From a virus: a stretch of DNA of 64,000 nucleotides. Numbering within the stretch: the stretch's first letter is position 1; each line of letters begins with the position of its first letter. The position numbers and the translations under genes are program-made. The DNA is taken from positions 1-64,000 of the IMG/VR virus record IMGVR_UViG_3300014720_000019, one strand, 5' to 3'. Of the stretch, positions 12,195 through 35,042 are shown piece after piece. The notes under the pieces were generated by a model. That model had not been told where the DNA came from and did no database searches. It saw nothing but the letters and a program-made list of their open reading frames with translations.

Positions 12195-12287
12195 ATATAT
12201 TTAAACTTCTATATCTCTTACTGGCTAGTTCATCCAGTGACTTCTATATTTTAATTGGCTCATCCATCCAATAACAAAGCAAAAGAA

Positions 12288-12764
12288 CTACTTAATCTTC
12301 TTGTTAGCAAGAAGTCTAGCAATTCTCTCCTTAGCAGCTTTTGCAGCCAGGTGAGAAGATAGTGCAGCATCAAGATGAGACTGTTTAGTAGCAGCCACTT
12401 GATCTGCAAGAAGACCTTCTGCTTCCATAGTAGAAACAAGAGACTCAATTGCTTGAGCCTTTTGCTCTACAAGATTAGCAGCATATGCTGCGTCTTGTGC
12501 CATGAAAGCAAAGGTTTGCACCTCAGCTTTAGCAGAGTTGTACTGGTGATTGACAACAGCCTCTGTTTCCAAAAGCTCCTGATACTCATCAGACAAACCA
12601 GCATCTTCTAACAACTGATCCTCTGCATCAGCACGTTGAGCCAATAAAGCAGATCTAGCTTCTTTAGCCTCTTGTTCTGCTTTAACCTTAGCCGCCTTTT
12701 GAGCAGCTTCAGTTTGAACAGATTGAGCAGAGATGGAAGCCAAGTATTCAGTAAATAGAGACAT
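12288..12764 (-). CDS. Ala-rich coiled-coil protein
   Basis: 158-aa ORF, AAGGA upstream. Confidence 0.85.
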   Translation of the reverse strand: MSLFTEYLASISAQSVQTEAAQKAAKVKAEQEAKEARSALLAQRADAEDQLLEDAGLSDEYQELLETEAVVNHQYNSAKAEVQTFAFMAQDAAYAANLVEQKAQAIESLVSTMEAEGLLADQVAATKQSHLDAALSSHLAAKAAKERIARLLANKKIK

Positions 12765-12778
12765 GATAGTTTCCTTAA

Positions 12779-12834
12779 CCTAGAACTAATTAGTGAGTTA
12801 TCTAGGATAAGTAAAAGGGCCAAATTAATGACCC
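12779..12834 (-). promoter_or_regulatory. Early-cluster double-hairpin element
   Basis: Minus: GGCCCTTTTACTTAT CCTAGA TAACTCACTAATTAGT TCTAGG. Confidence 0.75.
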
Positions 12835-12850
12835 AATTACTTAAAGAAGA

Positions 12851-13195
12851 TTAAGGATTATTCTTCTTGTTTTTTGCTTGTCTAGCAAGTCTTACAGCAG
12901 CAACAGCAGCTTTAGGATCTGCCATCATGCTGTTAAACACAGCAAAGTTCTTATCTGCTTCCTCAGCAAGATCCTCTGCATCAGCAAGATCTTCAGCAAT
13001 CTTAATTGCCATAGATGTTGCATCAAAAGCAGCAGCTTCAGAGTTAAGCTGTTTAATCAAAGCAACCTTTTTAGCTACTTCTTTCATACGCTCAACTTCT
13101 GAAGCTCTAGCCTTAGCTTCAGCCAACAATTGATCCTCATAAGAGACCTCAACTGTTGCTTTAGCTGCTGGGAACAACCAACTAAACCAAGACAT
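12851..13195 (-). CDS. Ala-rich coiled-coil protein with aromatic amphipathic N-terminus (MSWFSWLF)
   Basis: 114-aa ORF, AAGGA upstream. Confidence 0.85.
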   Translation of the reverse strand: MSWFSWLFPAAKATVEVSYEDQLLAEAKARASEVERMKEVAKKVALIKQLNSEAAAFDATSMAIKIAEDLADAEDLAEEADKNFAVFNSMMADPKAAVAAVRLARQAKNKKNNP

Positions 13196-13208
13196 AGATT
13201 ATCCTTTC

Positions 13209-13262
13209 CCTAGTACTGAATGACTTATACCTAGGATAAATAAAAGGGCCAATAAAGGCCCT
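13209..13262 (-). promoter_or_regulatory. Early-cluster double-hairpin element
   Basis: Minus: GGCCCTTTTATTTAT CCTAG GTATAAGTCATTCAGTA CTAGG. Confidence 0.7.
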
Positions 13263-13268
13263 AATTAT

Positions 13269-13592
13269 TTAGTTAATATACTTCTTGTAAGGAGGTGGAT
13301 AACCCTCATTATAAGAATTGAAGACATCATTAAGTATATTAATATACTTAATATCAACAGAGTCAAAGTCTTGCTTAACTCTAATCATAATCTCTGAACG
13401 TAGCTCCATAAGAAGCACATAGAGATCATAAACTTGAGAGCTATTACAAGTCTTTCTACAGTAGTAATCCAACTGTACATCTGCCACTGCTACAGAGTGA
13501 TAGTTAAGTTGTCTAGCAACATATCTAAGTAGCTTGCTAGAATTAGCACACCACTCAGACATCTTTCTAGAACTCATATCAATAATAGCCAT
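13269..13592 (-). CDS. Hypothetical protein
   Basis: 107-aa ORF, AAGGA upstream. Confidence 0.8.
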   Translation of the reverse strand: MAIIDMSSRKMSEWCANSSKLLRYVARQLNYHSVAVADVQLDYYCRKTCNSSQVYDLYVLLMELRSEIMIRVKQDFDSVDIKYINILNDVFNSYNEGYPPPYKKYIN

Positions 13593-13607
13593 GATATTTT
13601 CCTTTTA

Positions 13608-13666
13608 CTACAGGCATAAAGGCATCCTATAGCTAAATAAAAGGGCCCAACTTAATGAGCCCTTTA
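13608..13666 (-). promoter_or_regulatory. Early-cluster double-hairpin element
   Basis: Minus: GGGCCCTTTTATTTAG CTATAGG ATGCCTTTATG CCTGTAG. Confidence 0.7.
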
Positions 13667-13668
13667 TA

Positions 13669-14085
13669 TTAGATTAGAGAGATAGGATCACCATCTGTAT
13701 CTCCTAAATTGGAATAGGTATCTCTATACCAATCATAAAGAAGATCTTGATAGGATTCTGGGTCAATATCCTGTAAATCCTCTTCAGAGAGACCAAGATC
13801 AGGATGTCCATTGATAGATATATATCTATCAATGAATAGATCAATAGAAGACTTTTTAAACTCTACATTAGAGTAGAGTCCTGCATCTAAAACATAATCC
13901 CAAATGCAGTTAACCTCAGAAGAAGCACCTACAAAGCAATAGTCCTTGTGGATCTCAAGACCCAACATAAAGAATATATCTTCATCATAAACATATCCTT
14001 CATGATAGCTACCATCAACAACAAACATGCTGTTGTCAATAGCAAAAGAAGTATTGTAAGAAACAACAACTGTATTAGAAGACAT
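13669..14085 (-). CDS. Highly acidic hypothetical protein
   Basis: 138 aa, Asp/Glu/Tyr-rich. Confidence 0.85.
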   Translation of the reverse strand: MSSNTVVVSYNTSFAIDNSMFVVDGSYHEGYVYDEDIFFMLGLEIHKDYCFVGASSEVNCIWDYVLDAGLYSNVEFKKSSIDLFIDRYISINGHPDLGLSEEDLQDIDPESYQDLLYDWYRDTYSNLGDTDGDPISLI

Positions 14086-14096
14086 AACATTTACCT

Positions 14097-14148
14097 AGCC
14101 TGTATAAAGTAATTTAGGCCAAATAAAAGGGCCTATTACTAAGCCCCT
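14097..14148 (-). promoter_or_regulatory. Early-cluster double-hairpin element
   Basis: Minus: GGCCCTTTTATTT GGCCT AAATTACTTTATAC AGGCT. Confidence 0.7.
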
Positions 14149-14159
14149 AACAATATCAA

Positions 14160-14336
14160 TTACTTCTTCAATATATTCAAATAAAACCTTGCTTGACTAC
14201 CAGTTAAACCTTTATCATTCTTATGCTTATTAGCATATTGGTTAGTAGTCATACCTGCTCTTTTAGCCTTTGCAGACAAGGCACCAGGTCTTTTAATAGC
14301 CTTGTCAACATCCAATTTATTATTATCTTTAGCCAT
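14160..14336 (-). CDS. Small basic protein (58 aa)
   Basis: Not in ORF track: MAKDNNKLDVDKAIKRPGALSAKAKRAGMTTNQYANKHKNDKGLTGSQARFYLNILKK; flanked by element copies. Confidence 0.75.
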   Translation of the reverse strand: MAKDNNKLDVDKAIKRPGALSAKAKRAGMTTNQYANKHKNDKGLTGSQARFYLNILKK

Positions 14337-14382
14337 AGTATTACTGTATAAACATAGACAATATATACAGTAATATATGAGT

Positions 14383-14412
14383 TAATAAAAGGGCCAATTA
14401 AGACCCTTTTAT
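14383..14412 (-). terminator. GGGCC hairpin/T-tract (element copy)
   Basis: taataaaagggccaattaagacccttttat. Confidence 0.7.
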
Positions 14413-14423
14413 ATTAGAGATGA

Positions 14424-15062
14424 CTAGTCTCTTGGATAGTTTAATATCCAATCTTTGAAGAGCCGCCACTCTTCTTTATCTTTAGCAATCCAAAGGTCTA
14501 TACCTTCATCATGCTCATCATATTGTTCTAACGCACTAAAGCCAGTATCAACTAGTCTAATAGTGCATCCAACACCACTATCATGTCTTACCAACATGAT
14601 GTTATTGAATAACACATCATCAGACATGTTATTCTTCTTGACCATAGACGGCCTTCTAATGTCACCATGAGCCCAGCCACTAGCCCATAGTTCTTCTAGT
14701 TGAGACTCAGCCACATCAATAGCAGCTTCAATCTCATTCCTACTGAAGGCAGTAGGAAGACATGGATATAGTCTCTCCATAGCAATAATATATCCCACCT
14801 CCTCAATGTGGAAGTGATCCACATACTTCACTACTAAAGAATTAATCTTGTTAGCCCATTGCATAGCTAACAACTCTGCTGGGACAAAGCCATCCTTGTT
14901 AGTTTCCCAGCAAACTAACAATTCATTATCAAAGTCATCTTGTGACAGAGACTTAATAACAGTATGCTCACTAAGAGCATACACGGACCCAGTAAAGCCA
15001 CTGGACAGTAATTGAGCCTCTGGAAACTCAGAAGCAATAACAGTCTTAATAGAAATACCCAT
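14424..15062 (-). CDS. Ser/Thr protein kinase-like protein (minimal PKL fold)
   Basis: SGFTGSVY loop, VIK lysine, MERL hinge, HGDI...NIML catalytic loop, LVDTG. Confidence 0.85.
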   Translation of the reverse strand: MGISIKTVIASEFPEAQLLSSGFTGSVYALSEHTVIKSLSQDDFDNELLVCWETNKDGFVPAELLAMQWANKINSLVVKYVDHFHIEEVGYIIAMERLYPCLPTAFSRNEIEAAIDVAESQLEELWASGWAHGDIRRPSMVKKNNMSDDVLFNNIMLVRHDSGVGCTIRLVDTGFSALEQYDEHDEGIDLWIAKDKEEWRLFKDWILNYPRD

Positions 15063-15073
15063 GATATTAATAC

Positions 15074-15150
15074 TGCTGCATTGGTAATATATAGTGAGTT
15101 ATATGCAGCACATCTCCTAATAAAAAGGGCCTATTACAGCCCTTTTATTA
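15074..15150 (-). promoter_or_regulatory. Early-cluster double-hairpin element
   Basis: Minus: GGCCCTTTTTATTAGGAGATG TGCTGCAT ATAACTCACTATATATTACCA ATGCAGCA. Confidence 0.75.
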
Positions 15151-16035: not shown

Positions 16036-16085
16036 ACAGGATTATATAAAGTGAGTTTTATCCTGTTCTCCTAATAAAAAGGGCC
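16036..16085 (-). promoter_or_regulatory. Early-cluster element heading the cluster
   Basis: Minus: GGCCCTTTTTATTAGGAGA ACAGGAT AAAACTCACTTTATATA ATCCTGT; no adjacent upstream minus-strand gene to terminate. Confidence 0.75.
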
Positions 16086-20678: not shown

Positions 20679-20876
20679 CTACTCATAAACAACCTTGCCA
20701 ATACTATAATCAAACACCCTATATTTGCCCCTTCTATTAGTCTTTGTATTATATTTATAGAAGCCTTCAACTAACTCAATAAGACCATCTATATTGTGAT
20801 TACCAATATTATCATGTGCTAACCAATGACCCTCATATAGTTCTTGCACTTTATACATAACCTTCTTGTCCTCCAA
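20679..20876 (-). CDS. Small hypothetical protein
   Basis: 65 aa, overlaps stop of giant gene. Confidence 0.6.
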   Translation of the reverse strand: MEDKKVMYKVQELYEGHWLAHDNIGNHNIDGLIELVEGFYKYNTKTNRRGKYRVFDYSIGKVVYE

Positions 20877-23800
20877 CTAAATACGTCTCATTATTACCAT
20901 CCCACATCCTTTCAATGTCATTATCTGTGACCCAAACACCAATAACAATAGGAGGTATATCCAACTTATCATCAAACTCAACAAAGCCACTACCTTGTGG
21001 ATCTCTTTCAGCCTCAGCAATAGCAATACCACTATCAATCATACTACTGTTTAGACCATCAATCATCTTATTTAAGCTAGTATCACCCTGATTAAACTTA
21101 TTTCTAGCAATGCCTCCTACATTTTGAAATACACTATCCAACATGTTAGCAACAATCGCACCAACAAAGCTACCTAATATAGCACTAGTACCACTCTCCA
21201 TAATAGGAACATTATTCTTAACAAGAGGCGCTACTATATTCCTATTAAATATATCTGTTAGCTTAGGAGTGACATAACTACCAACTAATCCCATTGACAA
21301 TTCAGTGCTAACACCCTTAGCAACACTAACAGTCCAATCCTCGTTAGGATCATTATAAGCCTTACTTCTAAATATGGCCCCAGCAACATTAGCAGGTCCT
21401 TTACCATGAGGCATGTTAAAGCCCATCAAACTAATAGTACTGCCAATAATACCTGCTGGATCTAAACCCGCTTCATCCTTACTAGTACCATATATAGCAC
21501 CACCTATTAAACTCAATAAGGCAGGACCAACAATATTAAAAGCACCATCAGCAACTTTACCCTTCAACTGAGCAACAGTAGTACCATCATTACCTCTATA
21601 AACTTGTTGTGGTTTAAAGTAGTCTTTATTCTCAGTCAACCCACCTAACAAGTCATTAGTTATTATGTTATCAATAATCTCTTTTCTATCTGGCTCAGAA
21701 TATCCAACACCACTATAAGCATTTTCAATCTCAGCTCTAATCTTCTTATGTTGAATGTTAGATATGTCACCACTAGCACTCATAGCAGCAGCCACCTCAC
21801 TAATAGCTTGCAGTTTAAATCCCTGACTAGTTTTCTTAGTTTGTCTCTCAATCAAATCACCAACCTTCTCTTTATAAGACAAAGTATCCCCCAAGCCAAT
21901 CTCATGAGTAATTTCAATCTGTCTAAGATGTTTAAACATGTCACCCATCTCTCTAGCACTATCCTCATCACCGCTAAAGTTAGATAACATCTTAGCCATA
22001 GCATCAGCATTAGTCATATTAGGATCATGAACAGCTTTAAACAATCTAGTCATAACATTATTACCTTCAGTGCCCAACTTACCTTGTGCTGCCAACCTAT
22101 AAGCCGCATTAAACAAGTCACTACCTAATAAGTTAGTACCACTCTCATAAAACTTACCACTAATGTTACCCTGCATGGTTTGAGCCGCCTTATTAATATG
22201 GACAAACCTATCTAAACCATTACCATAATCACCCATTAACGTTTTAGTTTGAGTGATACTAGTATGATGAGTTAATAGTAACAGTGAAGCAGTAGTTAGA
22301 CCATTACTACCTTCTCTAACAGTGTTTAAACTGCTAACATCTATGCCTTTAATATCACCACCTAAATGATCACTTAACATGGTAGTAAAGACCCCACCAT
22401 CATTAAATCTAATCATCTCAGCAGCAAACTTATTCATCTGATCAGCTAACAACTTATTTCTATGACTGTCAGACATGTTACCCTTATCATTGAAGTGATT
22501 AACACTATCAACAACATTGAACAACTCATTAACACTTCTAACAGCAGTATTATCCTTATCTCTACCCATAGCTTGTTCTGCCAATACCAACATAGTTCCT
22601 CTAACATTGGTATCACCTAAGAAGCCATATAAGCCTTGAGCAACAACACTTTCTAAAGCTCTATTACTGACCGCCTTATTACTAACTTTTAATCTCTTAT
22701 TACCTCTATCATCCTTATCTAGTGTAATCTCACCAAAGTTCTTCTCAAAGTTAAACATGGTGGTAATACTTCTAAGACCACTAGCAACCTTATATCTAAT
22801 AAGAGCATCCTCACTACCATCTGTTAGACTCTCAGCAACAAGTCTCTCATTACTACCTTCTAATAGACCATATTCAACCGCATCACCATACTTACCAGTA
22901 CCTCTAGTAATCATCATATTTAAGTCCATTAGAGCCTTCATACCACCACCAGGACCAATACTGGAAGCCATACTGTCAATTATCTCCTTCCTCTTAACCT
23001 CATCAGCACCAACATACTCTTGACTCTTCATCTCCAAACTAGCCATAACAGACTTAGAATCACCCTTTAGCTTAATACTATCTCTAAGCATTTGTTGTAT
23101 GGCTTCATTCCAACCCTGTAACTTCTGAGCCTTATTATAAGCATTTCTCAACTTACCAACAAAGTCAGTACCTTTACCACTACCATTACTATTAATTAGA
23201 TTGCCAGTACTACCATCAACGTCAGTCATATTCATCTGTTGTTCTATCTGATCAAATTGACCCTCTAACATGTGATGTAAGCTTACAATAGGACTATCAG
23301 CAACAAAGGTGCCTAACAACGTATTATAAGTTCTACCTAGCACATCATTACCCGCTTTACCCAACGTCCTAGTAAGAACATCATAGGTGCTATCTTCAAT
23401 GCCAATGCCTAAGCCACTGCCCATAACCTTCTTCAAAGCATCATTACTCTTACTAGTAGCATCTAACTTAGCAACTAATCTACTAAAGTATGTAGTAGCA
23501 TCCACCGCATTATCACTATTATTAATACTATTACTACTATCTTGTAACTCCTCCCAAGACTTCCTCATAGCATCCTTTAAAGTGTCATTCAACTCACCCT
23601 GCAAGCTACTATCATAGGTATTACTAAGCTCTGACATGAAGAGCGCCTTATAAATGCTATCAGCGTGTTTACTATCATCCATCTTATCAATAAACTCACC
23701 AATAGACTTCTTATCAAATATAAGACCAGTAGCAGTGCCACTACCCTTTGTAACATTTAACAAGTTATCTACAGCAGTTGTCATATAACTACTAACACCT

Positions 23801-26800
23801 TGTAGACCGCCATATAAACCTCTACCTTGTTCAAGCATCACAGCCATAGAACTGATATCTATTGTCTTATCTCTAAAGCCCCCCTCACTAGCACCTACAA
23901 AGAACCTACTATCAACGCCCATATAAGAGGCCACATCTTTTGCCATCTTAGCCTGATTAGTACTACTAGTAACATCAAGTTGTAAGCCCTTTAAAGCTAA
24001 AGCATCATTTACTAGTTGCTTCTCATCCTTAGCAATAGCCTTTTGTATCTTACTATAATCATCAGTAGACATCATTCTATTAACAAGTTTATCCTTATTA
24101 ACCTTAATAGATAGCTCCATATCATTGATGCTATTCATCTTCTCAGTGATCTTATGTAACAGAGTTATATAGTTATCACCATCAAAGTCACCAAGATTAC
24201 TAGTAAGAAAGGATAGACCATTAAACATTGCTAGACTCTTACTTCTATCAACGTCAAACTTAACAATATTATTAGCCTCATCAACCTTAATATTGTCAAC
24301 CATCTTATTAAACTCATCCACACCTCTAATGCTCATCAGCGTTGCTAGATGTGGCTCCGTTGAACCAAAAGGAGCAGATCTCCAGCTTTGATTCTGCATA
24401 TTATCTAATTGACTAAACCTGTTATAGGCCATACCAACTTCCATCAAAGCATAGTGTAAGAACTGAGTACTAGTATTACCCTTATTCTTATAATCATTAA
24501 CCTGATCTCTTATACTTGTTAGATGACCAATAAGGGTGCCACTAGTATTAGTACCAACACCCAACAATTTTCTATTAAACTGTGTTAAATACTCTTCTTG
24601 TCTAGATCTTGGCTTCTTATTGTCCTTAGCAGTTGGAGCAAAGTTATCAATGAAGTCACCTAACAGATCAATCCTCTTAGTTATATACTCACTAACAAAT
24701 GAGGCCTTCTCTTCAAAGGTTGCACTAGTATCATTTAACAAGTCTCTAATGCTAGTAGTAGCTTGTTGGTATACTGTGTGCTTACCTCTCATAGCACCTT
24801 CTAATTCTTTACCATACTGATTAATAAGATCTAATCCCATGCTATAGTCTCTATTTGGTCCATTATGAATAAAGTCTCTAATCTCATGATTATTGCCAAG
24901 ATAGACCGCCTCTTGAAACTTATTTTTCTTCATCCACTTATTAATATCACCAACAACAGATGGCTTCTCAATCTTAATCTTTGCAAACTGTAAGTTAGCC
25001 AATACATAACTAGCAACGTATGCCTGATCATATGCACCAGTATTATCCAACTCCGCTCTAACTCTATCCCTAGACTCTCTAGCATTCTTAATAGCAGCGT
25101 CAATCCATTTAGTATCAATGGGCTGTCCCTTCTGTGCCCTGTTAACCAACTCATGAGCATGAGCAATAGTACCAATTCTATGTTGTAGTTCTAATGAGGC
25201 AAGATTAGACATACCTCTTACTAGCATTTGTCTTTGATAGTCTAATACAGTACCTAATGATTTAGTAAACTCACCAACTAACTTATCCTTGTTATACTTA
25301 CTAATATCACCAGTCAGCTTATCACCCATATTGACATAATTAAGATGCGCCTCAGCAGTGACATTAAACAGTTGTTGTCTAATATAAGCAACACCCTCTG
25401 GAGCCCCATATCTCTCATTAACAAATTGAGGCATAACGTTCATGTTAGCAGCTATAGACATATTAGGAATAGGAGTACTAACATAACCATCAAACTCAGT
25501 CCCATGACCCGCCATAGCCTTCTGTACTAAGGTGTCACTACTAGCTTGAATAATGCTTGTCATCAACTCATCACCTAAGTTATAAAACTTATTAAGCATT
25601 AGAGTTTCTTCTCTACTCAAATTAACATTAAACATGACACTACCATTCTGCGCCTTTTTAGCCTTACTCAGTTTAATTAGTAAATCATTCTCAGCAGTAC
25701 CAGGAGTAAAGTAGCTATACATGTTAATACTTCTACCAACGATCTCACTAACAAAGTCACCAAAGCTGCTACCAATTTGATTTAACAACTCAGCACCAGG
25801 CATAAACATATACTTACTTCTAGTACTGCTAAACACATAGTTATAATCACCAGTAGCACTATCCATCATAGGATCACCTATAACTTCAGGCATTAGTATA
25901 TTGGCAGTAGTATTACCCATTTCCATCAACATCTTTAGCTTGGGTTGAGTAATATCAGTACCCATACCTTTACTCTGTTCCAAGTTATATCTAATAGCTT
26001 CTCTCTTTAAATCTTCAACAATACTAATAGCAACATTCTTAGTTCTAACAGTATAGCTATTAGGATCATCCATCTTATTATTTAAAACCTTATCAGCATA
26101 CACCGCCTCAGCCAGTGTCATACTGCCTTCTATAAAGTATTGTTCAGCTTTACTAGCATCAAAGCCCTCTCTAATACTAGCCTTATATATCTTCTTATAT
26201 TCACTCATTAGCTGCTTACTATTACTATCAGCGCTATAGTAAACACCTAAGAACTTCTTACCATAGAAGCCACTAACAATGGTTTGATCTAAAGCATCAA
26301 CAGCATTAATACTGTCTAAGTACTCCTTACTATCGGCCATACCAACACTAATAGCACCAATATCACTAGCAGCAAATATAGTGCCTAAGACATAGGCTAA
26401 GTTACCCTTATTACCAGTTCTAGTAAACTGTTTAGTCTGAGCTTCTAATGGTGTCAATAGATGTTGTATTTCCGTCTTAGCTCTTAAGTTTTTACCTAGG
26501 GGATCTTTATTAGCAGAGGGTAAAACATTAATAGCAAGAGCAACAGCATAGTTCTGTTGTAAGTATATCCCCATCATCTCAGCCAACTTATCCTTCTCTT
26601 GATTAGACATGTTAAAGGCATTACTCTGACCACCCAAAGCAGCAGCAATTTCAACCAATGGATCATTAGTCTGTCTACCAATTAACTTGCCTTCATCATC
26701 TCTAATACCCATCTTAAATAGCCAATCAGTGACAACACTAATATCACCCTTTTGATTCTTCAATTGACCAAACATGTCAATAGCAGTTAACAGTGCTGTT

Positions 26801-29800
26801 ACACCCTTGGTATACATGTCACTACTATTAATAACATAAGCCTTATCTTTACTAGAAGAGTCATACAAGACATCACTAACATATCTTTGTAATAGCTCGT
26901 CCAAATTACCACCACCAGTTGTCAACGCCTCATTAATAGCATTAGTCAACTCACCATTATTCATAATGAACTGAGGAATTGAACCAAATATATTATCCTT
27001 AGAACCACTCTTATTACCCTTAAGAATGTTTTGCATCTCCAACATTCTCAGATATGTGCCATACTGACCACTTAAAGCTTCTCTATGATATGCTTTAACA
27101 GCCTTATCATTTCTCTGTCTAGCATCTCTATCTTCAATTCTATTACCCTTATTATCAAACATGCTTTTAGTTATGTCTAAACCAAACTGACTAACTAAAG
27201 CCATAGCTAACATCTTCTTATCCTGTCTAACTAAAACTTCAGCCACTCTTTGTTTAGCCCCATTAACTTCAACATCCCTTGTTAATAGAACACCACCATG
27301 ACCAACAAAGAAGCCACTCTTTAAGTTATTAGGATTAACAAGACCATACACATCAGACAAGCCAACATTCATCTTATTAAAACTACTAACACCAACTGTT
27401 GACTTATCAGTGCTATAACCCAATGCTTGTTTAAATGAGCTATACAACTTACTAAACTGACCACCATCTAAGAAGGCAGCAACACCCTTAAACAACAAAG
27501 CAGCAGCAGTACCTTCTTGTCTTCTACTACTACCAGCTCTAATCATATTCAAAGGAGTAACTTCAAAGACAATCTCATTAGTAGGACCACTTCCACCCTC
27601 TCTAACCTTAGCCTTTAATATATATTGAACTGAATCCTCACCAGGTCTATTACTAGTAGATCTTTGTTTAACACTAGCAACAGGCTTACCAAATAGACTA
27701 AAGTTTTCTATTTGACCTATCAAGTAATCACTAGAACCAGTACCACCAACATAGGTGTTACCAATTACTCTATTACCTCTACTATCTTCTGTGTATTGAA
27801 CAACCTTGTTATATATTCTATCATATATAAAGGTGTCTCCATCCTTAATAACAAAGCCATCACTAGCCAGTTGTTCTCCACTCAATCTAACCTCACCAAC
27901 ATACGTTCTAGTATCAAGCATACTAGCCTTAATACCAGTAGTAGTTGGACTAGGAGCCGCCGCATAATACTTAGTTCTAAAGTTAGGATTAAGATAAAAA
28001 TGATCACTGTAGCCACCATTCAACTGTAATATCATAAACTGTGGCTTATCTCTTCTACCTCCAATCATACTACCCAACTCATTAGGATTGGTCATACTTT
28101 GATTGATCATTTTTAATCTAAACATATAGTTGAGGGCCATCCTACTCTCCTCATCTAGCTCCTGATCAAACTGACTAAACAGCTCTCTTCTCTGCTCAAC
28201 AACATTATTATAAGCACTCTCACTTAACACTGATCTAACATCAGTGTCAAACATAGTACCAAGGTTTACCTCCTCAGCACTTAAATAATTCTGTATAAAC
28301 TTCTTAGCTTGGTCATCCTTATCACTATTACCTAATAAACCAACCAACCTATCAACATAGCTCTTAACAAGTCTCTGTTTATCCCTCTTAAAACTACTTA
28401 GAGTTTCACCAGTTAATAATGTATTAGCAGCCTCCTCACTAACCTCATACAACAATCTACTACCTAGTGCATTCTTAATACGCTGTGCAATCTGTGCTGG
28501 CTTATTAGGATCTAAGTTAAACAGTATGCCCTTATCATCCTCCTTCATACCAAGTTCTTGCATGATATAACCAGCATCAACATCACCAAACTTAGCCTTT
28601 AATCTTTGCTTACTTATGAGAGTACCAATACCAGTACCTTCTAATATCTCAACACTATTTCTATCAGTTGGAAACTTATTTCTAATACCAAATGTCTCTA
28701 ATTGGTATCCATCTTTACTTTGAGTTGAAACGCCCTCAGCAACACCACTTAAATAGTATCTAGGACTGCCCTCCATATCAACGCCAAAGCCACTATAGAC
28801 ATCAACATCTCTTGCAAATGTTCTAGCCCATCTAAGTATTCCCATCAACTCATTACCACTAGATTGAGCCATCTTAATCATATCAATGGCTCTATTATTA
28901 CCACTATCCAAGCTATATAGCTGATTCTTACTAGCAGCAACACCCGCTCCATAAGTAATAGCTTGGTGAAAGCCTAAGAATGGTTCTAACATCGTTCTTG
29001 ATAGCTCTCTCATCTGACTATTTAAATCATTCTCAATGTTAAAACCACTATTACTTCTAAGAACTTCTAGTGATAGATCTTCATAGCCTTGCTGACCTAA
29101 TAGACTACCTAACTGACCAATAACTCTTTCAACATCACTACCACTACTAGCACTTCTTAGAGCCTCTACTTGTTTTATTAATACTAATCTACTATAAGGA
29201 TCAATACCAGCCATAGCTCTAGTATTATCAAGATAGCTAACACCCATAGTATTAAATCTACCTTCTAACTCACTAGCTAATCTCTTGTGTTCTCCCCTTT
29301 CAAATAAGTAGTTACTATACTCACTACTATTAGTATAAGCACCACCTCTCATACTACTAAGAACATCTCTCTTAATACCTAGGATAGAAGTAGTAAAATC
29401 AAACACAAGACTAACTCTATCAGCCTCACCAACCCCAACCAATCTACTAGCTGGATTAGTAATACCTTGTCTATATGCCATCTCCCCAATCATAGTTGCA
29501 AAGATGCTAGTAGTATTATCAATGCTAGACATCTCCACTGATTGACCAGTGTTTAGTTGGCCCTTTGTAAACATCCAATCAATAGCTTGACCACTATTAT
29601 TAGTAAAGTTGCTATTGTATATCAACTTACCTTCCTTCTGGAAGAAAACAGGACCAGGTTGATTGTTAGTACCTTGTAACATGCCCAACGTATATGTCAA
29701 TCTACCAGTACTTAGATTCATACCTAACATGCCACCAACATTAATACTAACTTCCAACATTAAAGGGGTGCCAAATCTATCATACTTTCTAGTAATAGAC

Positions 29801-32622
29801 ATAGCATCACCTAAGCCTTTACTCATCTCTTTAAGGCTCGCTTCTAGTCTTAATAAATCCTTACTATTACCCTGTTTAGCCCAATATGGTAAACCCTCTA
29901 TTGATGGCATAATATCATTAGTAACTCTATTGCCATAAGTTAGTTGGTTATATGACATTATGACCGCCTTATTTAACTCTTTAGTCTCATATAACTCCTC
30001 CTCTAACAACATAGAGTTCTCATTATTTATAAATCTAATAGCATTTAAGTTATCTAAATAATCCTGATCAGCTTGATTTCTAATAGAAGAGCCAACCCTT
30101 CTACCTTCACTCTCAAATATCTCTCTATTAGTAAAGACAACACCCATCTCATCACTAACATATGGATCATTATCATTACCCATTAAATATCTACCATTTA
30201 AGCCAACACCCATGTTAGACATAGACAAGTTAGCACTACCAGTGTAGCTAGCAATTTGACTAAATCCCTTACTCTCTCTCTTATAAGCAGTAAAAGACTT
30301 ACTATGTTGTCTAGGCACATTAGCACCAGTAATATTACCACTTGCTATTGCCAATACTTGATAAGCAGTTAGATCATTACCATTACTACTATTAATACCT
30401 AACCTAGCATTCAACTTATTAACTTTATCACTTAAAGTATCAGTACTACTAGTAACACTACTAACAAAGCCCCTGATAGACCCACCGTAATCACTAACAA
30501 AGCGGCCATCTAAAGCCATATTAATATAATCCCAAGTAGGCTCAATCACTTGAGATGTAAAGTTCTTATTATCAACAACAATCTTAGTTAGACCCAATGC
30601 AACCATAGCAAAGTTCTTCTTCTGCATAGCTTTATACATATCATACTTAGCATCTTGTCTAGTTCTAAAGCCACTATCACTGTCAAAGGTATTCCTATCA
30701 AAGGTGCCCATCTCACCCCTTTCAAAGTTATTCTTATTAGGTTTATTAGGATCATCTTTATCCACGTATCCTCTATAACCTAAGTGATTAACATGTAAGA
30801 AGTAAGCTTGGTCTAACACCATATTCATTCTAAGATCACCAGTGTATTTACCCACATGATCAAATAAGGTGCCACCAACCTCATTACCAACAGTTCTATC
30901 TAAATAGTCAATAGTAGCCTTCAATGTATACATAATGTCAGTGGCATACTTAATATTAGATTGAGTGCTTCTACTTCTAAGTTGATTCTCCTCCTTCTGA
31001 GCTTCAACTACTTGGTTATACATTAATGCTGATAGATATTGTTTATAGTCATTAGCCTTTTGATCTCTTAATCTTTGAGGATCAAAGTCTTTAGACAATG
31101 TTCTAAATCTTTCTTGCTGCATAAAGAATCTACCAGCAAAACCATTATTACTATAATCTCCAAGTCTTGATCCATTTATGAAGCCCTTACTTGATTCTTC
31201 TAAATACCATCTTCTTTCTTGTATTAATTTATCATTCCTCTTAAACATGACCATCATTTCAAAGTTGGAGCCAGCTTTAAACACAGAATCACCAACAGGA
31301 CTAGTTAAGTTAATACTACCTAAAGATGCAAACTGATTAGTTAGATATACCTTCCTGTGATGAGCGGGGCCAGCATATGTAAAGTTAAAAGCAGCATTAG
31401 CAATAGCCTCAGCTTCTACTCTATCTTTATACTTATTAGTAGACACCCACTCATCTACTATCTGATCTCTTAATCTTTTTAACTTTTGTATCTCTAATAT
31501 ATTAGGACCAAAGATAGCAGCACCAGTACCATCATCACTTGGAATAGGAGTACCAACAGTCACATTAATCTTAAAATTAGTATTATTATTTACAACTAAC
31601 TCTCTATAAATCTTACTAACAACAACATCACTGATAGCCTTATTTTGATACTGAAACGTATCAATAGTAATAAAGTCTTTAGCACTCTCAAACATAGCAA
31701 CAAAGGGTAATATACCAGGTCTTGTTTGATACTTAACATCATCTAATATTGTCTCTGCTTTCTGTTTATAACTCTTTTCAATACTAACATCAATAGACTT
31801 AGTAAGACGTTTAGCTCTACTAACCCCACCACCAGTCAACTCATTAGTCATAGATCTAACTCTAACAAAGTCTAGATCAGTAATAGTTTGACCAGCACCT
31901 CTCCTTCTATTATTAAATCTATTCTGATTAAAAGCACTAATATCATCTCCTGTAGCACCATTTTTAATAGTAGGAACAAGACCTCCACCAAACAAGTCAC
32001 TATCAACTAATCTAGCTAATGTCTCTTGACCTCTAGCCTCTAACCCTTTCTTATCTTCACTAGGTCTAAGCCTATTAAAAGCAGAAGCATAGTTATAAGC
32101 TTGATTTATATAATAGTTATCAATCTTGTTAGTACTATTATTACCTAAATACATGCCTTGTTGTCTTAAAGCATCTCCAAATATATTCTCAAATACAGTT
32201 TGACTGGCATAAGCTTTAGTCTCAGTAGGATCAATTCTATAAGCCTCACCCATTAGAAACTTAAGACTATTTCTACTGTCTTTCAAGTTATTACTCATAC
32301 TAGTATCAAACTCACTAAAAGTCCTACTAGTAACCGTTTGACTAATACCATATACAAGTCTATTATCAAAAGCTATGCCTTTATTTGATTGATCAACACC
32401 ATACAGACCATTAGATATGTCATTATTCATACCTAAAGCTCTTTGCCAATCAGTATTATCTAAGGCCGCCTCATTACTAAAGCCTTCACTGTTATATAAA
32501 TTAAAACTAACAGCAGTACCTAAAGCACTTTTATTACCTTGTTGTATGTTATTGTATAAACCACTAACAGCCTCTCTTCTAGACTCTAAATGGTATTCAG
32601 TATTTGAGAAATAACTTGACAT
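20851..32622 (-). CDS. Giant multidomain protein: tandem PLD-like domains + two-barrel RNA polymerase (candidate virion RNAP, possibly tape-measure fusion)
   Basis: HRKVYLTNQFASLGSINL and HSKSF...YTGSANLS PLD motifs; GGYSDHFYLNP, FKGV, GLVNPNNLK, WRSAP, NLGDFDGDN (24175-24189), LGRTYN, RDSIKLKG; Gly-rich hydrophobic C-terminal segments. Confidence 0.75.
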   Translation of the reverse strand: MSSYFSNTEYHLESRREAVSGLYNNIQQGNKSALGTAVSFNLYNSEGFSNEAALDNTDWQRALGMNNDISNGLYGVDQSNKGIAFDNRLVYGISQTVTSRTFSEFDTSMSNNLKDSRNSLKFLMGEAYRIDPTETKAYASQTVFENIFGDALRQQGMYLGNNSTNKIDNYYINQAYNYASAFNRLRPSEDKKGLEARGQETLARLVDSDLFGGGLVPTIKNGATGDDISAFNQNRFNNRRRGAGQTITDLDFVRVRSMTNELTGGGVSRAKRLTKSIDVSIEKSYKQKAETILDDVKYQTRPGILPFVAMFESAKDFITIDTFQYQNKAISDVVVSKIYRELVVNNNTNFKINVTVGTPIPSDDGTGAAIFGPNILEIQKLKRLRDQIVDEWVSTNKYKDRVEAEAIANAAFNFTYAGPAHHRKVYLTNQFASLGSINLTSPVGDSVFKAGSNFEMMVMFKRNDKLIQERRWYLEESSKGFINGSRLGDYSNNGFAGRFFMQQERFRTLSKDFDPQRLRDQKANDYKQYLSALMYNQVVEAQKEENQLRSRSTQSNIKYATDIMYTLKATIDYLDRTVGNEVGGTLFDHVGKYTGDLRMNMVLDQAYFLHVNHLGYRGYVDKDDPNKPNKNNFERGEMGTFDRNTFDSDSGFRTRQDAKYDMYKAMQKKNFAMVALGLTKIVVDNKNFTSQVIEPTWDYINMALDGRFVSDYGGSIRGFVSSVTSSTDTLSDKVNKLNARLGINSSNGNDLTAYQVLAIASGNITGANVPRQHSKSFTAYKRESKGFSQIASYTGSANLSMSNMGVGLNGRYLMGNDNDPYVSDEMGVVFTNREIFESEGRRVGSSIRNQADQDYLDNLNAIRFINNENSMLLEEELYETKELNKAVIMSYNQLTYGNRVTNDIMPSIEGLPYWAKQGNSKDLLRLEASLKEMSKGLGDAMSITRKYDRFGTPLMLEVSINVGGMLGMNLSTGRLTYTLGMLQGTNNQPGPVFFQKEGKLIYNSNFTNNSGQAIDWMFTKGQLNTGQSVEMSSIDNTTSIFATMIGEMAYRQGITNPASRLVGVGEADRVSLVFDFTTSILGIKRDVLSSMRGGAYTNSSEYSNYLFERGEHKRLASELEGRFNTMGVSYLDNTRAMAGIDPYSRLVLIKQVEALRSASSGSDVERVIGQLGSLLGQQGYEDLSLEVLRSNSGFNIENDLNSQMRELSRTMLEPFLGFHQAITYGAGVAASKNQLYSLDSGNNRAIDMIKMAQSSGNELMGILRWARTFARDVDVYSGFGVDMEGSPRYYLSGVAEGVSTQSKDGYQLETFGIRNKFPTDRNSVEILEGTGIGTLISKQRLKAKFGDVDAGYIMQELGMKEDDKGILFNLDPNKPAQIAQRIKNALGSRLLYEVSEEAANTLLTGETLSSFKRDKQRLVKSYVDRLVGLLGNSDKDDQAKKFIQNYLSAEEVNLGTMFDTDVRSVLSESAYNNVVEQRRELFSQFDQELDEESRMALNYMFRLKMINQSMTNPNELGSMIGGRRDKPQFMILQLNGGYSDHFYLNPNFRTKYYAAAPSPTTTGIKASMLDTRTYVGEVRLSGEQLASDGFVIKDGDTFIYDRIYNKVVQYTEDSRGNRVIGNTYVGGTGSSDYLIGQIENFSLFGKPVASVKQRSTSNRPGEDSVQYILKAKVREGGSGPTNEIVFEVTPLNMIRAGSSRRQEGTAAALLFKGVAAFLDGGQFSKLYSSFKQALGYSTDKSTVGVSSFNKMNVGLSDVYGLVNPNNLKSGFFVGHGGVLLTRDVEVNGAKQRVAEVLVRQDKKMLAMALVSQFGLDITKSMFDNKGNRIEDRDARQRNDKAVKAYHREALSGQYGTYLRMLEMQNILKGNKSGSKDNIFGSIPQFIMNNGELTNAINEALTTGGGNLDELLQRYVSDVLYDSSSKDKAYVINSSDMYTKGVTALLTAIDMFGQLKNQKGDISVVTDWLFKMGIRDDEGKLIGRQTNDPLVEIAAALGGQSNAFNMSNQEKDKLAEMMGIYLQQNYAVALAINVLPSANKDPLGKNLRAKTEIQHLLTPLEAQTKQFTRTGNKGNLAYVLGTIFAASDIGAISVGMADSKEYLDSINAVDALDQTIVSGFYGKKFLGVYYSADSNSKQLMSEYKKIYKASIREGFDASKAEQYFIEGSMTLAEAVYADKVLNNKMDDPNSYTVRTKNVAISIVEDLKREAIRYNLEQSKGMGTDITQPKLKMLMEMGNTTANILMPEVIGDPMMDSATGDYNYVFSSTRSKYMFMPGAELLNQIGSSFGDFVSEIVGRSINMYSYFTPGTAENDLLIKLSKAKKAQNGSVMFNVNLSREETLMLNKFYNLGDELMTSIIQASSDTLVQKAMAGHGTEFDGYVSTPIPNMSIAANMNVMPQFVNERYGAPEGVAYIRQQLFNVTAEAHLNYVNMGDKLTGDISKYNKDKLVGEFTKSLGTVLDYQRQMLVRGMSNLASLELQHRIGTIAHAHELVNRAQKGQPIDTKWIDAAIKNARESRDRVRAELDNTGAYDQAYVASYVLANLQFAKIKIEKPSVVGDINKWMKKNKFQEAVYLGNNHEIRDFIHNGPNRDYSMGLDLINQYGKELEGAMRGKHTVYQQATTSIRDLLNDTSATFEEKASFVSEYITKRIDLLGDFIDNFAPTAKDNKKPRSRQEEYLTQFNRKLLGVGTNTSGTLIGHLTSIRDQVNDYKNKGNTSTQFLHYALMEVGMAYNRFSQLDNMQNQSWRSAPFGSTEPHLATLMSIRGVDEFNKMVDNIKVDEANNIVKFDVDRSKSLAMFNGLSFLTSNLGDFDGDNYITLLHKITEKMNSINDMELSIKVNKDKLVNRMMSTDDYSKIQKAIAKDEKQLVNDALALKGLQLDVTSSTNQAKMAKDVASYMGVDSRFFVGASEGGFRDKTIDISSMAVMLEQGRGLYGGLQGVSSYMTTAVDNLLNVTKGSGTATGLIFDKKSIGEFIDKMDDSKHADSIYKALFMSELSNTYDSSLQGELNDTLKDAMRKSWEELQDSSNSINNSDNAVDATTYFSRLVAKLDATSKSNDALKKVMGSGLGIGIEDSTYDVLTRTLGKAGNDVLGRTYNTLLGTFVADSPIVSLHHMLEGQFDQIEQQMNMTDVDGSTGNLINSNGSGKGTDFVGKLRNAYNKAQKLQGWNEAIQQMLRDSIKLKGDSKSVMASLEMKSQEYVGADEVKRKEIIDSMASSIGPGGGMKALMDLNMMITRGTGKYGDAVEYGLLEGSNERLVAESLTDGSEDALIRYKVASGLRSITTMFNFEKNFGEITLDKDDRGNKRLKVSNKAVSNRALESVVAQGLYGFLGDTNVRGTMLVLAEQAMGRDKDNTAVRSVNELFNVVDSVNHFNDKGNMSDSHRNKLLADQMNKFAAEMIRFNDGGVFTTMLSDHLGGDIKGIDVSSLNTVREGSNGLTTASLLLLTHHTSITQTKTLMGDYGNGLDRFVHINKAAQTMQGNISGKFYESGTNLLGSDLFNAAYRLAAQGKLGTEGNNVMTRLFKAVHDPNMTNADAMAKMLSNFSGDEDSAREMGDMFKHLRQIEITHEIGLGDTLSYKEKVGDLIERQTKKTSQGFKLQAISEVAAAMSASGDISNIQHKKIRAEIENAYSGVGYSEPDRKEIIDNIITNDLLGGLTENKDYFKPQQVYRGNDGTTVAQLKGKVADGAFNIVGPALLSLIGGAIYGTSKDEAGLDPAGIIGSTISLMGFNMPHGKGPANVAGAIFRSKAYNDPNEDWTVSVAKGVSTELSMGLVGSYVTPKLTDIFNRNIVAPLVKNNVPIMESGTSAILGSFVGAIVANMLDSVFQNVGGIARNKFNQGDTSLNKMIDGLNSSMIDSGIAIAEAERDPQGSGFVEFDDKLDIPPIVIGVWVTDNDIERMWDGNNETYLVGGQEGYV

Positions 32623-32757: not shown

Positions 32758-33165
32758 ATGAGTACAGCATCTACCGTATTTGAGATCAAATTACCTTCTG
32801 AGACCATTATCTCTTTTAGAACACCAACATACAGAGACAGACAAGTAGCAACTAAGAGATGGAGACAACAACAAACTGAAGTAGGCTGGGCATTAGAAGA
32901 GCTATTAGCTTTCTCTATGTTACAAGCAGTTAATGGTCAGCCCATTCAAGCCGCCTTAGATCTAGATATCATTGAACAAGTATCTGACTGGTCAATGAAG
33001 GATGTATCATACTACTTAGAAGTATTCTTTGCAATTGCATTCACAGATGATGTTGCTAAGCAAAGAGCACAAGCAGAAGCAAAGGCATTACTTGAGGGAA
33101 AGTCAGTAGTGAAATCACAGGTCTCACCTACTACTTCAGCCCCTACTACTACTATAACCGCCTAA
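32758..33165 (+). CDS. Tail assembly chaperone (lambda gpG-like)
   Basis: 135 aa, KLPS...FRTPTYRD pattern; G GGA AAG slippery heptamer near 3' end. Confidence 0.7.
   Translation: MSTASTVFEIKLPSETIISFRTPTYRDRQVATKRWRQQQTEVGWALEELLAFSMLQAVNGQPIQAALDLDIIEQVSDWSMKDVSYYLEVFFAIAFTDDVAKQRAQAEAKALLEGKSVVKSQVSPTTSAPTTTITA
33096..33102 (+). other. Programmed -1 ribosomal frameshift site (G GGA AAG)
   Basis: In X XXY YYZ phase with the 32758 ORF; -1 frame has no stop from 33096 into the 33183 ORF. Confidence 0.8.
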
Positions 33166-33182
33166 CACAACATGCTATACAG

Positions 33183-33587
33183 TTGGCACTTTTATATAAG
33201 ATGCCAACTGTAATAACATATAGCCATATAATCAACTATGATATAAATCCCTCTGAAAAGTATTACAGAGATATACCACTATCAGAAGAGTTTATATATC
33301 TTAGAGAGGCCTTCTTTGAAGAGAACGCTAAGAGGTTCATAGAAGCCTATAACATAAATAACTTCATACAAATAAGTGAGGCGTGTGATATACCATATGG
33401 TAATAACTGGTTAGACTTTGATGAGATTGAGAGAAGAGCTTTTGAAATAGCAATTAACAAGCTAAACATTGAAAGACACAAAGCATCTCAAGCTGAGAAG
33501 GAAGAATTAAAGAAACAATTTGAATCCTTTAAGCCTCACAAGTCTGGCTTTAGTGACATACCAATGCCCAGTATAAGATTTAATTAA
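33183..33587 (+). CDS. Tail assembly chaperone C-terminal part (gpT-like), probably made as a ~276-aa frameshift fusion
   Basis: Weak TTG start; in -1 frame from slippery site. Confidence 0.7.
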   Translation: MALLYKMPTVITYSHIINYDINPSEKYYRDIPLSEEFIYLREAFFEENAKRFIEAYNINNFIQISEACDIPYGNNWLDFDEIERRAFEIAINKLNIERHKASQAEKEELKKQFESFKPHKSGFSDIPMPSIRFN

Positions 33588-33590
33588 AAC

Positions 33591-35042
33591 ATGGCACAAA
33601 CAACAAAACCAACTAATAAAGCTGGTGCCTCAACATCATTATCTCAACCAAGATCTGCTGAGATAAACATATCTAAATACAAGACAAATCCCCCATTACT
33701 AGTAGTGGGTGATAACAAGGTACGTCCTAACACATATAAGCAGTTAGGACGTGCCACATCATTTGTTAGTAATGGAGATTCATTGTATGTAAACACGGGG
33801 CCACATCCCTATCAACTAGCAGTATGGGATTACATTAGAAAGAAGGAGCCAATCATATCAGATGGGCTTGATAAGATGACCTTATCAGTACTAGCTAAGA
33901 TTGGCGCTTATAATCATAAGAATAAAGACATAAGAGCATTTGTAAAAGCCAATTTAAAGAATAAAGTTAGGGCTTGGATTGAGAATATAACCTATACAAT
34001 GTTATGGTCTGGCAAGTCAGTATCAGAGATTATATGGGAGAGAAGATATGACAAAGATGGCACCCCTCAACTATGGGTAAAAGATCTAATCAACTATCAC
34101 ACATCACAAATAATATTAAGACTGAATAACTATGGAACACTTACACATGGAGAGCAAGTATTAAACAGTCAATTCAACACTGGAGTGTGGGTACCAAGAC
34201 CAATACTAACAGAGAATAATAAAGCATATAAAGTTGATAGAAATTGCACTGGATCACATGTAAGATTGCCAAAAGACAAAGTAGTATTAGCTTCATACAA
34301 AGATGAGGGTAACAATCCACATGGAACACCCGCCTTATATGCAGCAGTAGACTTCTCCTTATACAAGGAAGCCTTTAAAGATATGTACTCAGTTGCTCTT
34401 GACAGATATGGCACCCCTCTAATGTACTTTATAGTTCCAGCAACACAAACAACTGAGGACATAGAAGACATTGATGGCACTGTTAGAAAGAAGATGTTTA
34501 GAGAGGCCTTACAAGAAGAGGTACAATCACTATCAAGTGGCTCTGTATTAATACTTGAGAGACAAGGTAATAAAGACGCACCAGAGCCTAAAGTAGAAGC
34601 ATTAACAACAGGTAATAACTTTGGTGATTCATTCATTAATGCTATGAACCTAATGGATCAGAACATGTTACATGCTTTAGGTATACCCAATCTAATCATT
34701 AGAGATGAAGGTAGAGGTCTAGGCAGTGGTGGATCATCTGAGAGACAACTAGAAATATTTGACATGGTAATAACACAGATTGCCATTAAAGTAACACAAG
34801 TGTTATTAGAACAAGTAGTAGGACCACTTATCGGATATAACTTTAGTTCTGTATTAGTACCAGACGCTGATGATTATGGTGAGTTTGCTATTAAACCTAT
34901 GAGATATGTTGATTATAAAGTAATGTCTGACAGTACTAAAGTATTAACAGAGGCAGGAGTAATACAACCAATGACTAATAAGAAGGATAAAATGTTTATT
35001 AGAAATCAACTAGGAATACCCAATGAAGACGAGGATGAATAG
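33591..35042 (+). CDS. Portal protein (DUF935/Mu gp29-like)
   Basis: 483 aa; GKSVSEIIW, GNNPHGTPAL, LDRYGTP, LIGYNF patterns. Confidence 0.85.
   Translation: MAQTTKPTNKAGASTSLSQPRSAEINISKYKTNPPLLVVGDNKVRPNTYKQLGRATSFVSNGDSLYVNTGPHPYQLAVWDYIRKKEPIISDGLDKMTLSVLAKIGAYNHKNKDIRAFVKANLKNKVRAWIENITYTMLWSGKSVSEIIWERRYDKDGTPQLWVKDLINYHTSQIILRLNNYGTLTHGEQVLNSQFNTGVWVPRPILTENNKAYKVDRNCTGSHVRLPKDKVVLASYKDEGNNPHGTPALYAAVDFSLYKEAFKDMYSVALDRYGTPLMYFIVPATQTTEDIEDIDGTVRKKMFREALQEEVQSLSSGSVLILERQGNKDAPEPKVEALTTGNNFGDSFINAMNLMDQNMLHALGIPNLIIRDEGRGLGSGGSSERQLEIFDMVITQIAIKVTQVLLEQVVGPLIGYNFSSVLVPDADDYGEFAIKPMRYVDYKVMSDSTKVLTEAGVIQPMTNKKDKMFIRNQLGIPNEDEDE

Follow-up and report, generated by a model that had tools for sequence, protein, structure and literature searches.

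Giant RNA polymerases carried by the phage particle are known from N4, from P23-45 and from crAss-like phages. Gp50 of coliphage N4, a protein of 3500 amino acids (aa), is known to be ejected and is the precedent for a giant polymerase that passes through a tail. Gp96 of the Thermus phage P23-45 is a virion RNA polymerase of the two-barrel kind fused to the tape measure (PMC10770324), and gp66 of phage phi14:2, which is crAss-like, is likewise a virion RNA polymerase (PDB 6VR4). In many two-barrel families, significant similarity is confined to the region of the DxDxD motif (PMC10770324). Here we analyze a stretch of viral DNA of 64,000 nucleotides (nt), positions 1-64,000 of the IMG/VR record IMGVR_UViG_3300014720_000019 (hereafter the window), whose minus strand carries a giant open reading frame (ORF) for a 3923-aa protein homologous to gp080 of the Microcystis phage Ma-LMM01. 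We propose, with a probability of about 0.5, that this giant protein is a multi-enzyme protein which is ejected with the DNA and which joins an enzyme of the phospholipase D (PLD) superfamily to a likely divergent virion RNA polymerase.

The giant protein and its family

The giant gene (20851-32622, minus strand, as are all positions given within it) is a single uninterrupted frame with an ATG start, as an earlier inspection of the bare nucleotide sequence (hereafter the sequence-only reading) had proposed. All motif strings quoted in that reading are present, and their order is the one it gave: HRK (aa 422; window position 31359), HSK (aa 773; 30306), GGYSD (aa 1536), FKGV (aa 1711), LVNPN (aa 1761), RSAP (aa 2748), GDFDGD (aa 2811-2816; 24192-24175), LGRTYN (aa 3095) and RDSIK (aa 3180). 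A Pfam scan of the giant protein matches no family (E ≤ 1). Its sole PHROG is 31006, of unknown function, with a match that spans aa 2735-3220 (E 3.8e-53).

A word-index search finds 13 full-length homologues with 46-70% identity, and a profile search against 1.84 billion cluster representatives returns only 38 matches, nearly all between 3000 and 5400 aa in length; members of the family are few and without exception giant. In relatives with as little as about 21% identity, the invariant or near-invariant positions comprise the His and Lys of both HxK motifs with their GSxN, the residues K1374, N1384, R1701 and K1712, the residues R2748, P2751 and G2753, the block G-D-x-D-G-D (aa 2811-2816) and charged residues up to aa 3230. 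Gp080 of Ma-LMM01 (YP_851094, 3562 aa, annotated as hypothetical; A0A7J4 in UniProt and BFVD) is a true homologue, with about 25% identity over three colinear pieces. The literature we searched holds no mention of a PLD module paired with a DFDGD motif, which agrees with the statement of the sequence-only reading that it knew of no characterized PLD-polymerase fusion.

The PLD module

Fold modeling and motif conservation show the first enzymatic module (aa ~294-880) to be a two-HKD phosphodiesterase of the PLD superfamily, with both catalytic His/Lys pairs intact. The assignment is confirmed at the level of fold and motif, and enzymatic activity is predicted. An AlphaFold model of aa 280-880, computed with a 20-row alignment, has a pLDDT of 79.5 and a pTM of 0.84 and displays the two-lobed, pseudo-symmetric alpha/beta fold of this superfamily. 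In a Foldseek comparison of the model with the PDB, every leading match is a PLD-superfamily member (E from 3e-4); the best match in the viral library BFVD is gp080 of Ma-LMM01, labelled as a PLD phosphodiesterase-domain protein (E 2e-27), and UniProt already assigns to gp080 the automatic label 'PLD phosphodiesterase domain-containing protein'. Among 14 distant relatives, PLDc_2 is matched in four (best E 9.2e-7) and PLDc in three, and the ESM Atlas gives a weak PLDc_2 lead for the N-terminus (0.89). The tandem PLD domains noticed in the sequence-only reading are therefore borne out by the confidence of the model, by a strong structural match and by Pfam matches at the level of the family, and the structure prediction that it had suggested for the N-terminal part does return a PLD fold for the range modeled.

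Lobe 1 (aa ~294-546; 30985-31743) contains a low-confidence insert at aa 482-519, and lobe 2 (aa ~547-880; 29983-30984) completes the module. HKD motif 1 reads H422-x-K424-x4-N429-x5-G435-S-x-N438 (31309-31359); motif 2 consists of Q-H773-x-K775, a hairpin of 18 residues, and G794-S-A-N797 (30232-30306). Each HxK in the model opens a beta-hairpin that closes with GSxN, and the 18-residue spacing of motif 2 arises because its hairpin is longer (strands 496-504 and 507-516 of the model). Compared with the pattern HxK(x)4D(x)6G(S/T)xN, the deviations are N429 in place of Asp and the x5 spacing in motif 1, and the 18-residue spacer and missing Asp in motif 2. The earlier remark that neither HxK has the canonical Asp at +7 holds for this protein (N429, Y780) but not for the family as a whole, in which most relatives keep Asp or Glu at this place in motif 1. 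The His, Lys and Asn of both motifs are invariant across the family. In HKN enzymes of the Tdp1 type, an Asn in place of the motif Asp is compatible with activity.

The DFDGD loop

The case for a polymerase starts from a candidate catalytic loop at aa 2747-2823 (24154-24384), whose invariant columns read W-R2748-S-A-P2751-x-G...(P/G)LS..TSNLG-D2812-F-D2814-G-D2816 and are followed by a hydrophobic strand. The pattern of the family is W/F-R-S-x-P-x-G, about 60 residues, and P-L-S..T-S-N-L-G-DFDGD-x-Y-T-x-I-F; R2748, P2751, G2753 and the block at aa 2811-2816 stay invariant in relatives at 20-25% identity. The known two-barrel enzymes RpoC, gp96, gp64 (the second polymerase of P23-45) and gp66 display h-x-R-x-P, 35-39 residues, (T/A)G-x-DxDGD and a hydrophobic strand, and the layout R-x(1,2)-P...DxDGD with the strand behind it is common to these four and the giant protein. 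In hhalign comparisons, the loop falls on the beta-prime motif HPLVCAAYNADFDGD, with P 0.023 against the whole of RpoC and P 3e-4 in a restricted alignment, a value reached by none of 150 shuffles. It also aligns with gp96 (P 0.017), with gp64 (P 0.012) and with the corresponding loop of a 1403-aa protein encoded in the same window (P 0.01; see below).

Other interpretations of the DFDGD loop were tried and rejected on the flanking residues alone. An EF-hand does not agree with the Pro/Asn at position 6 and with the lack of an acidic residue at position 12, and for the HAD (DxDGT), Toprim and Pol-beta nucleotidyltransferase patterns the flanking residues do not fit.

Many results, from fold prediction to published promoter surveys, speak against a polymerase. 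An AlphaFold model of aa 2600-3350, computed with a 24-row alignment, is all helical and contains no barrel (pLDDT 58.5, pTM 0.38), and the DFDGD stretch lies below 50; hence, the fold check around this motif that the sequence-only reading had proposed yields no double-psi barrel, albeit in a model of low confidence. Foldseek searches with the same low-confidence model retrieve helical-repeat noise only. Pfam RNA polymerase families are absent from the giant protein and from 14 diverse relatives, and a family-profile hmmsearch and phmmer against PDB sequences find no RNA polymerase and coiled-coil matches at most. Aligned by hhalign with the gp66 family, gp96, gp64, RpoB and RpoC, only 9-28 columns at the loop can be matched, and the crAss gp66 family as a whole displays no similarity to the giant family (probability 0.1). 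The spacing from RxxP to DFDGD is about 60 residues versus 35-39 in the known enzymes, which moreover have RxP and not RxxP. On the side of published work, all gene classes of Ma-LMM01 are described with sigma-70-like promoters and with no phage-specific motif (PMC5780444), and phage MaMV-DH01 is said to have no RNA polymerase (PMC9927357). Two further results carry little weight: a two-chain prediction of aa 1490-1830 with aa 2700-3250 gives an ipSAE of 0.00 with an uncertain partner fold and is evidence neither way, and a further colinear match to gp96, located ~100 residues past the loop (P 0.077), is too weak for use. Our scan for diverse beta-prime sequences yielded nothing but sequences at 85-100% identity to that of E. 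coli, mostly proteobacterial, and these were unsuitable for a profile.

Strings in the remaining conserved blocks were proposed in the sequence-only reading as further polymerase motifs, a claim that our comparisons do not support, although the blocks themselves are conserved in the family. The central block (aa 1531-1776; 27295-28032) comprises GxYSD, RxGEDS, GGGRRxE..LFKGV and NPxNLKS..HG, with R1701 and K1712 invariant. GGYSD, FKGV and LVNPN were taken to be beta-like, but in a restricted hhalign of this block with the E. coli beta barrel, 87 of 150 shuffles reach its score; nor does the block display any likeness to gp64, gp96 or gp66, and the ESM Atlas has no usable match for aa 1480-1830. 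The blocks behind the loop (aa 2892-3294; 22741-23949), rich in invariant charged residues, read KxVAxYxGID, EQGxGLxGG, LGKTYNTLxGT, LRDSIKxKGD, GPGxGL and FxFEK. Here, the likeness of LGRTYN and RDSIK to beta or beta-prime motifs does not exceed that of shuffled targets, and when LGKTYNTLxGT is compared with the bridge helix of E. coli, 73 of 150 shuffles reach its score.

What is left of the original two-barrel proposal is a catalytic-loop signature that resembles beta-prime, gp96/gp64 and gp66, whereas the second barrel and the bridge helix were not detected and the fold prediction failed. The polymerase claim thus rests on one loop, because all tests beyond it gave nothing. Yet these negative results are compatible with a polymerase, because two-barrel families share little outside the DxDxD region (PMC10770324). 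We regard a two-barrel RNA polymerase in the giant protein as plausible and unproven, at roughly even odds.

A second DxDGD protein and signals in the leftward cluster

A scan of the contig for the DxDGD motif led to an ORF of 1403 aa (2361-6572, minus strand; PHROG 30979), the last and largest gene of a leftward cluster. Its homologue is gp064 of Ma-LMM01 (1673 aa), which adjoins the published early genes gp054-gp063 and is itself expressed in the middle class. The protein carries colinear signatures of both barrels. The beta-prime-type signature is R1024-x-P, 33 residues, and N-x-G-D1060-S-D-G-D1064, with canonical spacing. About 460 residues upstream lies a beta-type signature, K562..R564..G..K569 (K..R..G.K.TT) and D582.NG..P591.DII.N (D.NG..P.DII.NNE), which parallels the beta-barrel block GDKxxGRHGNKGV ... 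DENGTPVDIVLNP. Both signatures are conserved between two clades at 25-29% identity. In restricted hhalign alignments, P is 6e-4 for the beta-type block, whose score none of 200 shuffles reaches, and 0.02 for the beta-prime loop, where 2 of 200 do so. A Pfam and PDB profile search with the 1403-aa protein gives no match, and hhalign finds no similarity of its family to T7 RNA polymerase or N4 gp50. With its 19 Cys residues it is unlike the giant protein.

On these signatures, the 1403-aa protein is a candidate for a non-virion, single-chain two-barrel RNA polymerase. By analogy with P23-45, its presence in addition to the giant protein suggests a scheme of two polymerases, and it would raise the prior for a virion partner polymerase, as in P23-45, phiKZ and N4. 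It equally offers a rival home for 'the' phage polymerase.

The leftward genes are accompanied by two recurrent elements. The element AACTCACT occurs six times on the minus strand (6583-6590, 7877-7884, 10984-10991, 12792-12799, 15093-15100 and 16050-16057), each copy 10-35 nt ahead of the start codon of one of six leftward genes, that of the 1403-aa protein included. It is mostly located in a hairpin loop, and the stem sequence varies among the copies. Together with its A/T-rich, TATA-like continuation, AACTCACT(A/T)TATA, it resembles the T7 promoter core ACTCACTATA, a likeness that may be due to chance; the element may be a promoter of a phage polymerase or a structure of the 5' untranslated region. 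A second element, GGCCCTTTTATT (minus-strand reading), is present 16 times within 2328-15149 at no more than one mismatch, compared with a chance expectation of 0.34 copies. Most copies supply the 3' arm and T-tract of hairpins that lie between the small leftward genes and resemble intrinsic terminators; there are 31 terminator-like sites where 9 would be expected. Neither a T7-type RNA polymerase nor a sigma factor is found in the 107-kb contig, and PF00623, PF00940 and PF04542 have no match on it.

Proposed virion packaging and ejection

From the position of its gene, the late expression of gp080 and the complete absence of Cys, we infer that the giant protein is injected from the virion. 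The gene stands head-to-head with a small ORF and the portal operon in the window, in three IMG/VR relatives and in Ma-LMM01. In the infection transcriptome of Ma-LMM01, gp080 takes the values 0, 0, 7.3 and 8.5 (log2) over four samples and falls into the same class as the neighboring structural genes (PMC5780444 supplement), which is the timing expected of a packaged protein.

There is no Cys among the 3923 residues, nor in any of the 51 family members, while the mean content of 24 other proteins of the contig (0.73%) leads to an expectation of about 29. Among the giant virion RNA polymerases established by experiment, N4 gp50 contains 0 Cys in 3500 residues, P23-45 gp96 0 in 5002 and crAss gp66 2 in 2180; T7 RNA polymerase contains 12 in 883. 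The absence of Cys would fit an unfolded passage through tail and periplasm, and scarcity of Cys may be a general mark of proteins that are ejected through phage tails.

A second giant ORF is located on the contig outside the window (contig positions 82786-93327, plus strand). Its product of 3513 aa is also free of Cys, rich in Ala, Leu, Gly, Ser and Thr, and has hydrophobic stretches; it lacks a DxDxD motif and does not resemble the first giant protein. This product may be a further ejected protein or the true tape measure.

Genome context and further features

The neighboring genes encode portal, major head, tail sheath, baseplate and fibre proteins as well as tube paralogues, and mark the source as a contractile-tailed phage (myovirus). 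The contig comprises 107 kb at an estimated completeness of 59%. Its major capsid protein is 43% identical to that of Ma-LMM01 and relatives. A search of sequencing runs finds the stretch in lake-water and freshwater metagenomes, and no RNA dataset is listed among its matches. Divergent from the giant gene run two small ORFs (32758-33165 and 33183-33587) and the portal gene (33591-35042), all on the plus strand (32758-35042); their order is kept in the relatives and in Ma-LMM01 (gp081, gp083).

Two terminal regions of the giant protein complete its description. The N-terminal region (aa 1-293; 31744-32622) is conserved in close relatives only. Near the C-terminus, Gly/Ala-rich hydrophobic helices (aa ~3690-3830; 21133-21555) with Kyte-Doolittle peaks at aa 3690 and 3805 are kept in the family consensus, and it is possible that they are segments placed in a membrane or in the lumen of the tube.

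Three observations concern other parts of the structural region. An ORF that resembles homing endonucleases of the GIY-YIG and HNH types (PHROG 314/7168) is inserted directly after the major head protein gene on the opposite strand (43571-44479, minus strand). Three consecutive ORFs (52153-53946, plus strand) all match the unannotated PHROG 34837, one of 271 aa in full and two of about 150 aa each as weak partial matches; they look like a tube-type gene and two degenerate copies. In the baseplate region, a protein of 380 aa (58293-59435, plus strand) ends in a C-terminal metallopeptidase domain of the M23 type (PHROG 28672; with matches to many endolysin and tape-measure peptidase families) and is probably the cell-wall-piercing enzyme of the tail.

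Alternative interpretations

The reading that we favor, a PLD enzyme combined with a likely virion RNA polymerase, would work as follows. Synthesized late, the giant protein would be packaged in the particle close to the portal and would pass through the tail in an unfolded state, entering the cell together with the DNA. The module at aa ~2747-3300 would bear a three-aspartate Mg2+ site of the two-barrel nucleotide polymerase kind. Most likely it would be a virion RNA polymerase that has diverged strongly and that initiates transcription in the leftward early cluster; this cluster includes the 1403-aa candidate second polymerase, a succession that would correspond to gp96 and then gp64 in P23-45. 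The protein would be fixed in the membrane or the tail channel by its hydrophobic C-terminus, and on entry the PLD module would cleave a phosphodiester substrate. As to this substrate, about half of our guess goes to nucleic acid, just under a third to membrane phospholipid, and about a fifth to something else. More tentative, with the odds leaning against it, is a full program, similar to that of P23-45, for Ma-LMM01-like freshwater myoviruses, a group to which published descriptions ascribe no RNA polymerase (PMC9927357). In it, the injected Cys-free PLD-polymerase of ~430 kDa would read the T7-promoter-like AACTCACT(A/T)TATA in the hairpins before the first genes, the 1403-aa polymerase would take over later transcription, and the PLD head would be a new accessory activity of an injected polymerase, either a nuclease that attacks host nucleic acid or a lipase that helps to cross the membrane.

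A rival that we take seriously, while giving it less than an even chance, is an ejected or internal virion protein with PLD as its only conventional enzyme; DFDGD would then be a metal or catalytic site of another function, and the polymerase would be the 1403-aa protein or that of the host. It accounts for the fact that every test beyond the loop was negative or uninformative, for the far more canonical spacing and both barrel signatures of the 1403-aa protein, and for the sigma-70-like promoters throughout Ma-LMM01 (PMC5780444). It accounts less well for the three invariant aspartates of D-x-D-G-D, which stand behind an invariant R..P and an invariant P...N.G and ahead of a hydrophobic strand, a combination that is the specific signature of the beta-prime/RdRP type. 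The EF-hand, HAD, Toprim and Pol-beta nucleotidyltransferase patterns, as read from the sequence, misfit the flanks; moreover, two-barrel polymerases already known to be divergent are likewise without detectable similarity beyond the loop (PMC10770324). That the giant protein is instead a tail tape measure with enzyme domains, like gp96 of P23-45, its helical middle and hydrophobic C-terminus lying in the tail tube, is in our view unlikely. Its long helical regions and Gly-rich hydrophobic C-terminus would suit this role, and no recognizable tape measure was found; the 848-aa ORF behind the tube genes matches only an unannotated PHROG, and its phage matches are all hypothetical. But this ORF occupies the usual slot of the tape measure. 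A tape measure gene would be expected behind the tail tube/chaperone genes and ahead of those for the baseplate, and the giant gene lies elsewhere (20.8-32.6 kb, minus strand): it stands beside the portal gene, on the opposite strand, some 20 kb away from the sheath and tube genes (49-54 kb), in a position that is conserved. Fully extended, 3923 aa would also imply a tail of nearly 600 nm, as against 260 nm in the relative MaMV-DH01 (PMC9927357). Least probable by far is a virion RNA polymerase of the N4 type, i.e. a T7-like single-subunit enzyme that reads hairpin promoters. Size and the absence of Cys recall N4 gp50, and leftward genes are preceded by hairpins whose loop AACTCACT(A/T)TATA resembles ACTCACTATA; however, hhalign finds no similarity to T7 RNA polymerase or N4 gp50 (P 0.4-0.6), the Pfam family RNA_pol (PF00940) is absent from the giant protein and the contig, and N4 gp50 itself has no DxDxD motif.

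Comparison with known systems

If the DFDGD module is a polymerase, the giant family would add an independent fourth lineage to the giant RNA polymerases delivered by virions, of which N4, the crAss-like phages and P23-45 supply the other three. As such it would be without precedent in a contractile-tailed phage and in its fusion to a PLD enzyme, and it would overturn the published view that phages of Microcystis blooms rely wholly on host transcription; as Ma-LMM01 is culturable, the polymerase reading is directly testable. If it is not a polymerase, there is still a rare (38 clusters in 1.84 billion representatives), strictly Cys-free giant protein with a real PLD enzyme, conserved in its place next to the portal gene, which would be a good model for the ejection of very large proteins through a myovirus tail.

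With the solved two-HKD enzymes (vaccinia F13, phosphatidylserine synthase, bacterial PLD, the human exonucleases PLD3/PLD4 and the C-domains of PPK1), the giant protein has both HxK...GSxN motifs in common. It differs from them in its low identity (9-16%), in large inserts, one of them helical between the lobes and the other the longer hairpin of motif 2, in Asn for the Asp of motif 1, in the lack of an Asp in motif 2, and in the more than 3000 further residues to which the module is fused. Gp080 of Ma-LMM01 possesses the PLD head, the DFDGD block, the hydrophobic tail and the portal-adjacent position as well, but keeps the Asp of HKD motif 1 where the giant protein has Asn, and contains one Cys; the two phages are very divergent, as the 43% identity of their major capsid proteins indicates.

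N4 gp50 is comparable in its size and its freedom from Cys, and differs in its T7-like single-subunit fold, in having neither a DxDGD motif nor a PLD domain, and in the absence of any detectable similarity. Gp66 of phi14:2 is likewise a large virion-type protein with an RxP...G-DFDxD loop, and some of its relatives are fused to other enzyme domains, e.g. helicases; however, it belongs to a podovirus, has 2180 aa and no PLD domain, and displays no profile similarity (probability 0.1). Gp96 of P23-45 differs in being the tape measure of a siphovirus, in the N-terminal location of its polymerase and in lacking a PLD domain, whereas the giant gene lies by the portal gene of a myovirus and has its loop at residue 2812 behind a PLD domain. 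Like the giant protein, gp96 is very large and Cys-free and carries a G-x-DFDGD loop with a hydrophobic strand (PMC10770324); in P23-45, too, the similarity to other polymerases is limited to the loop, and a second, smaller DxDGD protein, the non-virion RNA polymerase gp64, is encoded elsewhere in the genome, as is the 1403-aa protein here.
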